A DNA stretch of 13,905 nucleotides from a virus (lineage: Duplodnaviria; Heunggongvirae; Uroviricota; Caudoviricetes): the IMG/VR virus record IMGVR_UViG_2534682164_000017; one strand, 5' to 3'. The notes beneath the pieces were generated by a model. That model was given only the letters and a program-made list of their open reading frames with translations, did not search any database and was not told the origin of the DNA. The translations under genes and the position numbers were made by a program. Shown in pieces: positions 2,113-12,608 of this stretch. Position 1 is the first letter of the stretch. The number at the start of each line of letters is the position of its first letter.

Positions 2113-2188
2113 GGCCCTTTAGCTCAGTGGTTAGAGCAGGCGACTCATAATCGCTTGGTCGCTGGTTCAAGTCCAGCAAGGGCCACCA
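2113..2188 (+). tRNA. ileY: tRNA with CAU anticodon, most likely tRNA-Ile2 (lysidine-modified); elongator tRNA-Met not excluded
   Basis: A 76-nt cloverleaf folded by hand: acceptor GGCCCTT/AAGGGCC, D-stem GCTC/GAGC, anticodon stem GGCGA/TCGCT with loop CTCATAA (anticodon CAT), T-arm GCTGG-TTCAAGT-CCAGC, 3' ACCA. The sequence matches my recollection of E. coli ileX/ileY closely. Confidence 0.8.
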
Positions 2189-2513
2189 AATCATTATTTA
2201 CGTATCAGGAAGAGTTAAGGGTACAAGGGGTACTCGATGGCGGTCTATATTTCATGACTAACGCCATTTCAAGGAAGAAGTGCGGTGGGTGGTTTCGAAT
2301 GAGGGCTGGTGTTTTGGTACGTGGCACGCCACTGCAATGTATTTATCCATCAGTACTCATTCAAAAGTACCTGGAAAAAATGCCTGCTATGCCAAGCGGG
2401 CAAATTGCTTACATGTGGAATTAAGTAATTAACGATAAAGCCAGAGTATTATCATTTATTATACCCCTTCATTTAATCAGGTTAATTACTCAAATCACGG
2501 TAATGACTCCAAC

Positions 2514-3017
2514 TTATTGATAGTGTTTTATGTTCAGATAATGCCCGATGACTTTGTCATGCAGCTCCACCGATTTTGAGAACGACAGCGACTTCCGTCC
2601 CAGCCGTGCCAGGTGCTGCCTCAGATTCAGGTTATGCCGCTCAATTCGCTGCGTATATCGCTTGCTGATTACGTGCAGCTTTCCCTTCAGGCGGGATTCA
2701 TACAGCGGCCAGCCATCCGTCATCCATATCACCACGTCAAAGGGTGACAGCAGGCTCATAAGACGCCCCAGCGTCGCCATAGTGCGTTCACCGAATACGT
2801 GCGCAACAACCGTCTTCCGGAGACTGTCATACGCGTAAAACAGCCAGCGCTGGCGCGATTTAGCCCCGACATAGCCCCACTGTTCGTCCATTTCCGCGCA
2901 GACGATGACGTCACTGCCCGGCTGTATGCGCGAGGTTACCGACTGCGGCCTGAGTTTTTTAAGTGACGTAAAATCGTGTTGAGGCCAACGCCCATAATGC
3001 GTGCAGTTGCCCGGCAT
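2514..3017 (-). CDS. insB: IS1 InsB reading frame
   Basis: 167-aa translation identical to the copy A InsB frame; it overlaps insA in the -1 frame, as expected for IS1. Confidence 0.9.
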
Positions 3018-3211
3018 CCAACGCCATTCATGGCCATATCAATGATTTTCTGGTGCGTACCGGGTTGAGAAGCGGTGTAAGTGAACTGCAGTTGCCATGT
3101 TTTACGGCAGTGAGAGCAGAGATAGCGCTGATGTCCGGCAGTGCTTTTGCCGTTACGCACCACCCCGTCAGTAGCTGAACAGGAGGGACAGCTGATAGAA
3201 ACAGAAGCCAC
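2936..3211 (-). CDS. insA: IS1 InsA (transposition regulator and N-terminal part of the InsAB' transposase)
   Basis: 91-aa translation [42 protein letters not shown]...[12 protein letters not shown] with the zinc-finger-like C-x2-C...C-x2-C pattern. Confidence 0.9.
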
Positions 3212-3719
3212 TGGAGCACCTCAAAAACACCATCATACACTAAATCAGTAAGTTGGCAGCATCACCCAAATCACTGAACTATTCTCTGTTCGCTCACTGA
3301 TGATAAGTGAGTGTCACAACCACGATTTGTATGCGGGCCAATGCCGTAGAGTAAGGATGAAATGTCTCTGCCACGCCTTAAACATCTACTACTGACCAGA
3401 ATACCCGTCGCAGGTAGATGAGTCTTGTGAGCGTTACAGGAGTCTGGCTTTGCTCATTAATCAACGCTATTTAGATATAAATTTCTAACACTCGAAAAAC
3501 GAATTTCACTAATAAATTATAACGGGTGGTTTTTATCATACAGCGAAATAACTTTTTGTTTATTAAATTTAACATTCTTGTGCTAATTTAATTAAAAGTA
3601 CCATGTATAGCATATGAAGCTGTTAATGCCAGCAATTGTCTCAAATGAGCGATTTTTTATAGTGACAAACAATAATAAAATTAAAAATAGCCATGTAGAC
3701 ATTAACTGAGGAATAGACA

Positions 3720-5198
3720 ATGTTAGTTAGTAAAAGCAACGAATTTAACACTAGCTCATTTATAGATAGTGGAAATTGTAATGAAAGAAAATCTTCTGAA
3801 TCCATGGAGCTACTAGCTTATAGTATTATAAATTTAATTTGTAAGGAAGCTGCCTCAGGGACGTATCGCGGTGCTCTTGAAACTTTACAAAAAATGATGT
3901 CTGAATGTATATATCATGAAGGCAACGCCTTTGTCATTATGGGATCTGGAGAGCAATTAAAACGTATTAAATATGATGTTGATGAAAATAACTTAAAAGT
4001 ATTCAACGTATACTTTGATAATAATGAAGAGTTAGTTACTGATGGTGAGCCTGACGTAGTATGTTTAAGCAAGCAGGTCTGGGAAGATCTTCTCATTAAA
4101 CTAAAGCTGGAGAACAAAGAAAATGCGGTTTCTGAAACTGACCTGTCATCGAATAAAAATAATGTTGATCAGTTTATTGAATGCGCTAAGAGAAATGAAC
4201 AGACCCTATTCGATAATATAAGAAAAAGTGATTTTCATGTTGATTCATTTAAGCCAGGTAGTACACGTAGTGTTATTTTAGAAACACAACCAAATGTCTG
4301 TATGGAACCACATAATTTATATGACAACCAAATAGATAAGGTTTCACCTGTAACTAAAAACTCTCAGCAAGTTAAAGGCCACTATGGAGATAAATTTAAA
4401 GAAATGCAGATGTTCCTTAACCAGATGAGCAATGCACTTCAACAGACTCCATCTTTGTCAGAGTCAAAGGAACACACCATAGATATTCAAAAAATAACGG
4501 ATGCCTTTGTGAAAGAATTCCGGGGGGTATTAATTGATAAAAATGGGAATTGTTCAGAACGTTTATTCAATTTTTATGAGTGCTGCTATAAGTTTTTACC
4601 AAGAGCGCAGCCTCAAGATAAAATCGAAAGCTATAATTCAGCACTACAAGCTTTTTCCATCTTTCGTTCATCTACTTTGAATAATAATGATGTAGGGTTT
4701 AATTTTAAATTATTCCCAGAAGTCAAGCTGTCTGGTGAAAATCTTGAAACGGTATTCAAATACAAAAAAGGAAGTTTTGTCCGGGAGATAGCCAGAATTA
4801 ACATTACTCTCCAAAAAGAAGAGGATGGTTTATATAATTTAGGTGGATTGGATTTTAAGGGATGCTTCTTTTCTGGACAGAACTTCAGTAACTATGATAT
4901 TCAATATGTGAACTGGGGAACGTCATTGTTTGATCTTGATACTCCGTGTATTTTTAATGCGCCTGCTTACAACAAGAGTAATGAAAAATCATTAAAACCT
5001 GTGAGCGAAAACGGTTTAAGTGGAGTCTTGACTGATCGTAATAATAAAATAAAACTCATCACGGGCGTGGCACCATTCGATGATATTTTATTTATGGATG
5101 ATGACTTTGATGATAGTTCCTCTGAGGATGATCCCGTTGAGAATAGTCCTGTTGTGACTAGTCCCGTTGTATCAAGTTCTAAAAGCAGTTTTCAATGA
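3720..5198 (+). CDS. Hypothetical 492-aa protein, AT-rich orphan gene; pentapeptide-like repeats near the C-terminus and an acidic Ser/Asp-rich tail
   Basis: A long ORF with GGA at 3710-3712 and ATG at 3720. The gene is markedly AT-rich (about one third GC by eye, against roughly half for the flanking IS and phage DNA). The region GLDFKGCFFSGQNFSNYDIQYVNWGTSLFDLD looks like degenerate pentapeptide repeats. The tail reads DDILFMDDDFDDSSSEDDPVENSPVVTSPVV. No transmembrane segment or signal peptide is apparent. By position it could correspond to the ypjB/ypjC region of E. coli K-12; that is unverified. Confidence 0.7.
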   Translation: MLVSKSNEFNTSSFIDSGNCNERKSSESMELLAYSIINLICKEAASGTYRGALETLQKMMSECIYHEGNAFVIMGSGEQLKRIKYDVDENNLKVFNVYFDNNEELVTDGEPDVVCLSKQVWEDLLIKLKLENKENAVSETDLSSNKNNVDQFIECAKRNEQTLFDNIRKSDFHVDSFKPGSTRSVILETQPNVCMEPHNLYDNQIDKVSPVTKNSQQVKGHYGDKFKEMQMFLNQMSNALQQTPSLSESKEHTIDIQKITDAFVKEFRGVLIDKNGNCSERLFNFYECCYKFLPRAQPQDKIESYNSALQAFSIFRSSTLNNNDVGFNFKLFPEVKLSGENLETVFKYKKGSFVREIARINITLQKEEDGLYNLGGLDFKGCFFSGQNFSNYDIQYVNWGTSLFDLDTPCIFNAPAYNKSNEKSLKPVSENGLSGVLTDRNNKIKLITGVAPFDDILFMDDDFDDSSSEDDPVENSPVVTSPVVSSSKSSFQ

Positions 5199-5310
5199 TT
5201 AATAAATGGCTATTTTTACAAAGAGATAATAACGTAGATTGAAACAATATGTATTATTGATTGATTAAACGGGATTATTTTTTACACTACAACCATTTTG
5301 CTGCCACTAC

Positions 5311-11574: not shown

Positions 11575-11780
11575 TCCCCGCGGTGCTCAAAACACCTCGA
11601 AAGCGGTATCCACACCCGATAGCCATGTGGTTTTTTTGTGTCCAGAATTCTTGGTTTATGACCGGGTGTGCGGCTAATACAATACCAGCAATGGAAATAC
11701 GCCCGCCGACTTTCGACGGTTTTGAGCGCCCGGTCACCCTCTCAAAAGGGGTAAATCAAAATATTCGAAAGGACATGTCT

Positions 11781-12344
11781 ATGAATCGCACGTCTATTGA
11801 AAAACTCCCGTCACTTACGCATAACCATCTTCCTGTCATGACAACAGAGCTGCTGGCTGATTTGTACGGAACAGAGCGCCAGCGTTTGACAAACAATTTC
11901 AATCGAAACAAAGAACGGTTTATAGAAGGTAAACATTTTTTCCTGATAGAAGGTGATGCGTTACGAGAGTTGAAGAACGAAAACTCTTTAAGAGTTTCTG
12001 TGAAAATTGCCCGTAACGTTCGCTCCCTCATCCTCTGGACAGAACGTGGCGCAGCCCGTCACGCCAAAATGCTCGAAACCGATCAGGCGTGGGAAGTGTT
12101 CGAAAAACTGGAAGACTGTTATTTCAACCAGAAACAGCCACCAGCGGCACAAAACACATCTATCGAAAATGATGGATGCGCATTACTGAGCCACTTCGAT
12201 AAACACGGTCAGGTTGAGTTCACGGAAAAGGTACCCGCCGATGCGATGGTATGTACTCTGGAACGGTTTAAATTTTATCTGGAGCAACACGGGTGGATCG
12301 TTGCCCGTAAAGAGCAACTGGTGGAGCGGTTGATGCGGTTTTAA
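11781..12344 (+). CDS. ORF6N-domain protein (phage regulatory/antirepressor-like DNA-binding family)
   Basis: AGGA at 11770-11773 and ATG at 11781. The N-terminal segment …VMTTELLADLYGTERQRLTNNFNRNKERFIEGKHFFLIEGDALRELK… matches the ORF6N domain consensus as recalled. The ORF-track start at 11583 is an extension through non-coding sequence and is rejected. Confidence 0.65.
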   Translation: MNRTSIEKLPSLTHNHLPVMTTELLADLYGTERQRLTNNFNRNKERFIEGKHFFLIEGDALRELKNENSLRVSVKIARNVRSLILWTERGAARHAKMLETDQAWEVFEKLEDCYFNQKQPPAAQNTSIENDGCALLSHFDKHGQVEFTEKVPADAMVCTLERFKFYLEQHGWIVARKEQLVERLMRF

Positions 12345-12419
12345 AAATTTTTCCGAAAACTTTACGATCGTAAAAAGTTGAATATCCTGTTAAGAGTGGT
12401 TACTACGCCACACAGCTTA

Positions 12420-12444
12420 AACCCGCCGATGAGCGGGTTTTTTA
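12420..12444 (+). terminator. Intrinsic terminator after the ORF6N gene
   Basis: Stem AACCCGC / GCGGGTT with loop CGATGA, followed by TTTTTA. Confidence 0.6.
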
Positions 12445-12531
12445 TACCTGAAAAACGGCACAGGACGTTAAACGTGCTGGTGGTCAGATGAGTTTGCAGA
12501 TGTGATGACATATGGTTATTATTCTGCCTCC

Positions 12532-12608
12532 GGCCCTTTAGCTCAGTTGGTCAGAGCGAGCGACTCATAATCGCCAGGTCGCTGGTTCAAGTCCAGCAAG
12601 GGCCACCA
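12532..12608 (+). tRNA. Phage-borne tRNA with CAU anticodon (tRNA-Ile2-like; comparable to ileZ of Stx-type phages); tRNA-Met not excluded
   Basis: A 77-nt cloverleaf: acceptor GGCCCTT/AAGGGCC, anticodon loop CTCATAA, T-arm GCTGG-TTCAAGT-CCAGC, 3' ACCA. The 5' 15 nt and 3' 32 nt are identical to the tRNA at 2113-2188. The anticodon stem has an A-C mispair where the chromosomal copy has G-U. Confidence 0.8.

Follow-up and report, generated by a model that had tools for sequence, protein, structure and literature searches.

Two CAU-anticodon tRNA genes about 10.4 kb apart are probably the host gene ileY and an ileZ-type phage gene for tRNA-Ile2

Introduction

The IMG/VR virus record IMGVR_UViG_2534682164_000017, a stretch of 13,905 nucleotides that was analysed as a whole (the window), carries two near-identical transfer RNA (tRNA) genes with a CAU anticodon, about 10.4 kb apart. 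Such a pair raises the questions of whether the two tRNAs decode the same codon, where the second copy came from and whether the repeat makes the locus unstable. Our answer, to which we assign a probability of roughly 85%, is that the upstream gene is the host gene ileY and the downstream gene an ileZ-type phage gene for tRNA-Ile2 that would act as a codon supplement, that the two genes were brought close together through the insertion sequence (IS) IS2, and that no change of tRNA identity separates them. The arrangement is already known, a textbook ileY together with an ileZ-type phage tRNA, and is not a new mechanism. The analysis carries little weight as a discovery; its main use lies in correcting an earlier reading of the sequence (the original prediction) on the anticodon stem, the interval between the genes and their orientation.

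Two homologous CAU tRNA genes, one chromosomal and one phage-borne

We searched the window with ARAGORN and found five tRNA genes, all on the plus strand and all confirmed by the Rfam tRNA model. The two CAU genes were found exactly where they had been predicted (Table 1). Both form a cloverleaf with the CAU anticodon in a CUCAUAA loop. ARAGORN labels both as tRNA-Met because the program reads the anticodon alone. Minimum-free-energy folding returned a near cloverleaf for ileY and a non-cloverleaf structure of similar energy for the phage allele; because thermodynamic prediction is unreliable for tRNA without its modifications, this result was set aside.

Pairwise alignment of the two genes gave 71 identical columns out of 77 (92%). 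As the original prediction had stated, the genes have 15 nt in common at the 5' end and 32 nt at the 3' end; with one flanking A, the 3' tract of identity comes to 33 nt. In the D-loop the genes differ by one additional U and a U-to-C change. The remaining differences, read from ileY to the phage gene, are AG to GA at positions 26/27 and UU to CA at positions 43/44. The differences had been described as confined to the D-loop and the anticodon stem, which is correct for the D-loop and for pair 27-43 (G.U in ileY, A.C in the phage gene), the only pair that differs inside the stem; positions 26 and 44, however, flank the stem and lie outside it. Either CAU gene shares only 50-71% identity with the Arg, Thr and Gly tRNAs of the window or with the Escherichia coli elongator tRNA-Met. 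The likeness of the two CAU genes therefore reflects homology and exceeds what universally conserved tRNA positions would give.

The upstream gene is E. coli ileY, with identity over 76 of 76 nt and identical native flanks on both sides, and PGAP annotates that E. coli gene as tRNA-Ile. The window gene carries U6-A67, the pair that separates ileY from ileX. The E. coli genes ileX and ileY encode tRNA-Ile2, the AUA decoder with lysidine at position 34 (k2C34). The gene itself shows no difference from E. coli ileY; what differs is its setting, a 430-bp segment that is bracketed by IS1 and varies in orientation among strains. In the proposed explanation, C34 of this tRNA would be converted to lysidine by TilS, and the tRNA would be charged by IleRS and read AUA.

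The downstream gene heads a cluster of four tRNA genes (Ile2-like CAU, Arg UCU, Thr UGU and Gly UCC) that lies between a Q/antirepressor module and a holin gene. The position of the holin gene places the cluster in the phage late region. An identical tRNA is found in a prophage of E. coli VL40 directly after Q, where PGAP labels the cluster tRNA-Ile, Arg, Thr and Gly. This allele also has exact matches in at least 30 IMG/VR contigs, as well as in several E. coli and S. flexneri prophages; the four-tRNA cluster as a whole recurs in at least 35 IMG/VR contigs. The proposal of one chromosomal and one phage-borne gene was thus borne out, by the identity of ileY and its flanks on the one hand and by the late-region cluster and the VL40 match on the other.

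The downstream gene belongs to a large family of ileZ-type alleles of enterobacterial phages. In Shiga toxin (Stx) phages and other lambdoid phages, ileZ is likewise a CAU tRNA with tRNA-Ile2's acceptor stem, encoded downstream of Q, ahead of the lysis genes. The placement of an ileZ-type gene between Q and the holin/lysis genes was found in the window, and VL40 and phiP27 have the same layout. In phiP27, an Stx2e phage, ileZ-argO lies between Q and stx2e, and its ileZ has the same bases as the window gene (G26, A27.C43 and A44). Descriptions of ileZ-type tRNAs downstream of Q go back to the first Stx-phage genomes; phage 933W, as Plunkett et al. are said to have reported in 1999, carries ileZ-argN-argO. 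The cluster of the window is unlike the ileZ-argN/argO systems in its partners, which are Arg(UCU), Thr(UGU) and Gly(UCC), in the lack of a following stx gene and in the presence of an immI-like c4/isrK/antirepressor module after Q.

The phage tRNA retains the identity elements of tRNA-Ile2

E. coli TilS tells tRNA-Ile2 from tRNA-Met mainly by C4-G69 and C5-G68, where tRNA-Met has U4-A69 and A5-U68 (PMC2500205, PMC11947777). Both CAU genes carry C4-G69 and C5-G68 (GGCCC…GGGCC). The determinants of TmcA, the acetyltransferase that forms N4-acetylcytidine (ac4C) in tRNA-Met, are C27-G43 (the main one), C30-G40 and G44, and G27.U43 is an anti-determinant (PMC2500205). All of these determinants are absent from both genes: ileY has G27.U43, G30-C40 and U44, and the phage gene has A27.C43, G30-C40 and A44. 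Pair 27-43 bears on the avoidance of TmcA, not on the main determinants of TilS. The minor stem determinants of IleRS have been given as C4-G69, 'U12-G23' and C29-G41 (PMC9976931). Among the IleRS elements, both CAU genes have A73, C4-G69, U12-A23 and C29-G41. Nureki et al. are said to have reported U12-A23 in 1994, hence we take 'U12-G23' to be a misprint.

The original prediction had suggested that the differing anticodon-stem pair could alter recognition by the lysidine synthetase and so switch identity between Ile and Met. In such a scenario A27.C43 would make the phage tRNA a poor substrate of TilS, C34 would stay unmodified or become ac4C34, and the tRNA would be charged by MetRS and read AUG. 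Unmodified tRNA-Ile2 is indeed charged by MetRS (PMC9976931), E. coli TilS is impaired by anticodon-stem substitutions (PMC11947777), and ARAGORN labels the gene tRNA-Met, though from the anticodon alone. However, the TilS determinants are intact and the three TmcA determinants are all missing, and PGAP labels the identical allele tRNA-Ile. The allele is also widespread and clustered with tRNAs for three other rare A-ending codons, which fits the reading of AUA; an additional elongator tRNA-Met would be of no obvious value to a phage. Moreover, a 27-43 pair that is not Watson-Crick is the norm of the family, including the chromosomal tRNA-Ile2 of Rahnella. We therefore regard an identity switch as very improbable; pair 27-43 has been published as a determinant of TmcA and not as a main determinant of TilS. 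Lysidine at position 34 is predicted for the phage tRNA as well.

Pair 27-43 is rarely Watson-Crick in the tRNA-Ile2 family

To place the A27.C43 pair in context, we surveyed related alleles in two scans of IMG/VR, which gave at least 153 full-length genes and, among the matches listed, 36 distinct alleles. Pair 27-43 was not Watson-Crick in 35 of these 36 alleles (U.C in 13, G.U in 9, A.C in 8, C.U in 4 and C.C in 1) and Watson-Crick in one (G-C). At the adjacent pair 28-42, G-C was found in 24 of the listed alleles, U-A in 7, A-U in 2 and a non-Watson-Crick pair in 3 (A.C in 2, G.U in 1); both sides of this pair were altered in 9 alleles, by compensatory changes among G-C, U-A and A-U. Variation among the listed alleles was concentrated at positions 26, 27, 43 and 44. 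Neither G44 nor C30-G40 was found in any of the 36. C4-G69 together with C5-G68 was retained in 32 of the 36; in the other four, the 5' end is visibly degraded. A Watson-Crick pair at 27-43 is preserved in the adjacent Thr, Gly and Arg tRNAs of the phages. In some 15 species of Rahnella, the chromosomal tRNA-Ile2 has C27.U43.

Both transitions from G.U give Watson-Crick pairs (A-U and G-C), and these are nearly absent, which suggests selection against pairing at 27-43 in the tRNA-Ile2 family. The near-absence of a paired 27-43 would fit the role of this position as a TmcA anti-determinant. A27.C43 would then be one of several non-Watson-Crick alternatives tolerated at this position, with identity unchanged. 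We tentatively propose, at somewhat less than even odds, a rule that pair 27-43 of tRNA-Ile2 must not be Watson-Crick, either to keep the tRNA invisible to TmcA or because a loose stem of effectively 4 bp would aid the decoding of AUA; the A.C of the phage would be functionally equivalent to the G.U of the host. If the rule is true, Watson-Crick pairs at 27-43 should harm tRNA-Ile2. No statement of such a rule for phage alleles was found in the literature searched.

The cluster may supplement tRNAs for codons that are rare in the host

The phage CAU tRNA is the first of four tRNAs that would all serve host-rare A-ending codons (AUA, AGA, ACA and GGA). We compared 2,244 codons of the prophage remnant with 749 codons of two adjacent host genes. 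In these small samples all four cognate codons were 1.8- to 4.8-fold higher in the prophage than in the two host genes, at 7.1 and 4.0 per thousand codons for AUA, 6.2 and 1.3 for AGA, 16.9 and 4.0 for ACA, and 10.2 and 5.3 for GGA, respectively. The most likely role of the cluster would be to top up scarce tRNAs during the expression of phage late genes.

Genes for tRNAs downstream of Q in lambdoid phages (SfI, Sf6, ST64T, phage 21 and Stx2 phages) have been read as a supplement for rare codons (PMC3636060, PMC7946995). In SfI, Sf6, ST64T and phage 21, the genes have the same genome position downstream of Q, a Thr(UGU) gene is shared with the window, and ACA is enriched in phage genes (PMC3636060). 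SfI has Asn and Thr tRNAs only, whereas the window has a cluster of four genes in a defective prophage.

The position of the cluster between Q and the holin gene, the promoter-like site, isrK-type RNA and terminator that follow Q, and a weak promoter-like site that precedes the cluster by 10 nt suggest that the cluster could be transcribed by Q-antiterminated read-through, from a weak promoter of its own, or by both.

Several points weigh against the overall explanation, besides the size of the codon samples. Since the prophage is defective, its tRNA cluster could by now be a relic. The alleles surveyed had been selected for an identical T arm and 3' acceptor strand. In the D-loop, the phage allele departs from ileY at a site close to G16, D20 and D21, which have been implicated in aminoacylation and editing by IleRS, as defined on tRNA-Ile1 (PMC9976931). 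Finally, given the effects of stem substitutions on TilS, A27.C43 could lower the rate of lysidinylation (PMC11947777).

The two genes were probably brought together at an IS2 joint

Of the 10.4 kb between the CAU genes, 3.7 kb are phage DNA, and most of the interval is made up of chromosomal genes and IS elements. The IS2 element in this interval lacks a 5-bp target duplication, with GTTGC on the left (within 7468-7477) and GCGTT on the right (within 8799-8808), which marks it as the site of a recombinant joint and not of a simple insertion event. Deletion or recombination mediated by IS2 produced this joint, which links a truncated ypjA to phage DNA upstream of the helicase gene. In our explanation, the CAU genes would be close together only through this fusion of truncated ypjA to a truncated prophage. 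Integration of a prophage at ileY was considered and ruled out by the interval of ypjC, ypjA and IS elements and by the IS2 without target duplication.

The 459-aa product of the ypjA'::IS2 junction was found as an exact protein in 847 blocks of a public assembly collection. Papers name three carriers, CP023645, CP032523 and CP022457, as Shigella sonnei strains belonging to lineages 2 and 3, and wherever a junction-protein contig that was read came from a named complete genome, that genome was Shigella sonnei. The window itself is 99.88% identical by BLAST to a sister genome (L127) across the full 13.9 kb. The arrangement of the window was not found in any complete E. coli genome searched. Judged from these matches, the window represents part of a Shigella sonnei-type chromosome.

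The phage copy was not derived from the neighbouring ileY

The phage gene had been described as a captured and diverged host gene. Its homology to host tRNA-Ile2 stands, and it has U6-A67 in common with ileY and not with ileX. However, its D-loop matches the chromosomal tRNA-Ile2 of Rahnella and most phage alleles, not ileY. On this sequence evidence the gene was not copied from the neighbouring ileY. Capture of a host gene is a reasonable, loosely supported description of the ileZ family in general.

A different origin would be the duplication of an attachment (att) site by an element integrated at ileY, which is truly an integration site. In some E. coli and S. sonnei genomes it is occupied by a P4-like island with a tyrosine integrase, and the duplicated part of the tRNA is confined to 46-47 nt at its 3' end. 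In L126 (S. sonnei AR-0030) and some E. coli (L123), such an island lies at ileY, which leaves just these 46-47 nt next to ypjC; the loci concerned are 2142-2188 of the window, about 12,200-13,200 of L123 and about 5,850-6,100 of L126. At least 16 IMG/VR contigs have only a 3' fragment of ileX or ileY preceded by unrelated DNA, presumably att sites. The second CAU gene of the window, in contrast, is full length with a distinct 5' half of its own and lies inside a four-tRNA phage late cluster. There is no integrase nearby, and the interval is made of chromosomal genes and IS elements and not of an island. This anatomy, a full-length second copy with no integrase bounding a contiguous island, refutes the duplication of an att site, to which we give next to no probability.

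Seven short contigs also contain the E. coli ileY gene together with an exact copy of its E. coli flank. Their assemblies are labelled as Streptomyces, Umezawaea, a Bacillota metagenome-assembled genome and Enterobacter sp., and most likely contain E. coli contamination.

The orientation of ileY varies, and deletion between the CAU genes is improbable

The original prediction had treated the two CAU genes as direct repeats. This is true of the window and of L127, in which the 430-bp ileY segment has the same orientation. However, BLAST showed the segment to be reverse-complemented in L124, L125 and L128, and ARAGORN placed ileY on the minus strand in L129. The segment is thus inverted in four of the five sister genomes whose locus contains ileY, and the two CAU genes are inverted repeats in those genomes.

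It had also been proposed that recombination between direct repeats could delete the region between them; the loss of 10.4 kb, with ypjC, ypjA', IS2 and the phage early genes, would leave a hybrid tRNA gene. The direct orientation in the window, the identical tracts of 33 bp at the 3' end and 15 bp at the 5' end, and an interval (IS1, ypjC, IS2-truncated ypjA, IS2 and phage early genes) that contains no obviously essential gene would all permit this. However, a tract of 33 bp only just exceeds the shortest length that supports RecA-dependent exchange in E. coli, which Shen and Huang are said to have put at roughly 23-27 bp in 1986. Where the tRNA genes are inverted repeats, exchange would invert the interval and not delete it. 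The 768-bp IS1 repeats, by contrast, demonstrably recombine at this locus, as the inversions of ileY show.

We looked for the product of such a deletion as the ileY upstream flank …TTGTTATTGCACACTCAAG followed by a single CAU tRNA and then by …CCACCAACCACCACTAGC. A synthetic joint of ileY upstream sequence, tRNA and phage downstream sequence had no match over at least 80% of its length in 5,426 complete E. coli genomes, a set without Shigella and hence of low power. The deletion context was found in none of 24 contigs that carry the 98-aa open reading frame (ORF) beside the cluster, again with low power for Shigella. The strain survey thus returned no recombinant, and the proposed deletion did not gain support; we consider it extremely unlikely. 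It is the 768-bp IS1 repeats and site-specific integration that drive rearrangement of this locus, and not the tRNA repeat of 33 bp.

Possible evasion of tRNA nucleases, and variable neighbours in related clusters

The phage copy might instead have diverged at positions 26, 27, 43 and 44 to evade a tRNA nuclease of the host or of a rival phage, replacing cleaved host tRNA-Ile2 instead of or besides supplying codons. There is a precedent in the P2 OLD protein, which removes the anticodon arm of host tRNAs; a phage tRNA-Thr(UGU) resists it through altered stem motifs and a shorter anticodon stem and so rescues the cell (PMC12445682). In that tRNA, too, most differences from the host counterpart lie at the top of the anticodon stem (PMC12445682). 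The variation of the CAU alleles is concentrated at the four positions in question, and the Thr(UGU) tRNA of the same cluster in the E. coli VL40 prophage has UCAUC in place of UCAGU. Against this, tRNA-Ile2 lacks the paired CNG motif seen by OLD (positions 28-30 are GCG), host ileY itself has a wobble pair at 27-43, the Thr tRNA of the window retains a host-type stem, and the literature searched yielded no nuclease directed at tRNA-Ile2. We therefore rate nuclease evasion by the CAU tRNA as unlikely, and P2 OLD was rejected as the selective agent on it, as the CNG motif is absent. The replacement of cleaved tRNAs would be plausible for the Thr(UGU) member of such clusters.

In the VL40 Thr(UGU) gene (4275-4350 of its contig, aligned with 12689-12764 of the window), the 3' side of the anticodon stem reads UCAUC where the window has UCAGU. 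Two base pairs are lost as a result, along with the CAG half of the paired CNG motif, a change that resembles those reported to confer resistance to OLD (PMC12445682). The Thr(UGU) tRNA of the window, with its host-type stem, is presumably sensitive to OLD.

In many related clusters, among them five of the contigs compared and others in IMG/VR, the slot of Arg(UCU) contains no canonical Arg(UCU) gene. It is instead occupied by a tRNA-like gene of 73-75 nt with a related conserved scaffold, CCGCCACTAGCTCATCGGGAAGAGCGGCAAC-loop-GTTGTAGTACGAGGTTCGAGGCCCCGGTGGCGGACCA, whose anticodon loop has a short core of 5-6 nt that is hypervariable. Among 16 contigs in which the scaffold and the downstream flank are identical, the loops are TAAAT (8 contigs), TTAAT (5), TTTAT, TGAAT and ATAAT. 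Loops on other scaffolds include CCAGGT, CTTGGT, CACGGT, ATGAT and more. ARAGORN leaves some of these genes undetermined and calls the others Phe(AAA), Leu(UAA), Stop(UUA) or Ser(UGA). Variation of the loop alone on a fixed gene looks like diversifying selection (on a decoy, for evasion of nucleases or for changing decoding) rather than decay. No description of such a gene was found in the literature searched.

Layout of the window

The features of the window are listed in Table 1. An alpha-amylase-like pseudogene lies at the left end, before the tandem IS1 copies. The module downstream of Q resembles an immI-like arrangement of P1/P7 or an isrK-anrP-like arrangement of Gifsy-1, and separates Q from the tRNA cluster; the corresponding tRNA cluster of E. 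coli VL40 follows Q directly, with no immI-like module. The 680 bp between the tRNA cluster and the holin gene (12843-13522) correspond to the position of stxAB in Stx phages and contain no toxin gene. Within them we found a doubtful 98-aa ORF (13020-13316) and, just before the holin gene, a strong hairpin terminator (13456-13482).

Table 1 Features of the window, with positions, strand and supporting evidence.
Feature	Position	Strand	Evidence or remark
Two tandem IS1 copies (526-1293, 1302-2068), 44 bp upstream of ileY	526-2068	+	Terminal repeats; InsA/InsB ORFs; BLAST against L124-L128
430-bp chromosomal segment with ileY, between inverted IS1 copies	2069-2498		Orientation varies among sister genomes
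CAU-anticodon tRNA, ileY	2113-2188	+	ARAGORN; Rfam tRNA model, 73.8 bits
Third IS1, inverted relative to the first two	2499-3266	-	
ypjC-like DUF5507/DUF5508 chromosomal gene	3720-5198	+	E. coli homologue annotation; Pfam
ypjA (autotransporter adhesin), cut off by IS2 at 7472/7473	6109-7488	+	E. coli matches
IS2, recombinant joint of chromosome and prophage remnant	7473-8803	+	End sequences; InsC/InsD ORFs
Prophage remnant, early/nin region	8804-11300	+	Similarity to phiP27 and Stx phages; Pfam
DnaB-type helicase	8908-10299	+	
85-aa ORF	10296-10553	+	
RusA	10553-10924	+	
Q antiterminator	10914-11300	+	PF06530
Module downstream of Q	11305-12445	+	Rfam; promoter/terminator scan; Pfam
Promoter-like site	11305-11334	+	Promoter/terminator scan
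c4-a1b1/isrK/C4-type RNAs	11328-11526	+	Rfam: c4-a1b1 11328-11380, isrK 11341-11417, C4 antisense RNA 11443-11526
Terminator at the end of isrK	11396-11412	+	Promoter/terminator scan
sRNA-Xcc1 match	11660-11743	+	Rfam
ORF6N antirepressor-like gene	11781-12344	+	Pfam, PF10543
Hairpin with T-run, terminator-like	12420-12445	+	Read from the sequence
Weak sigma-70-like site TTTGCA-18-TATTAT, 10 nt upstream of the tRNA cluster	12493-12522	+	9 of 12 consensus matches only
CAU-anticodon tRNA, phage-borne, ileZ-type, predicted tRNA-Ile2 (G26, A27.C43, A44)	12532-12608	+	ARAGORN; Rfam, 70.5 bits
Arg(UCU) tRNA	12610-12686	+	ARAGORN; Rfam
Thr(UGU) tRNA	12689-12764	+	ARAGORN; Rfam
Gly(UCC) tRNA	12768-12842	+	ARAGORN; Rfam
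Class II holin S, start of the lysis cassette	13523-13738	+	Pfam, PF04971

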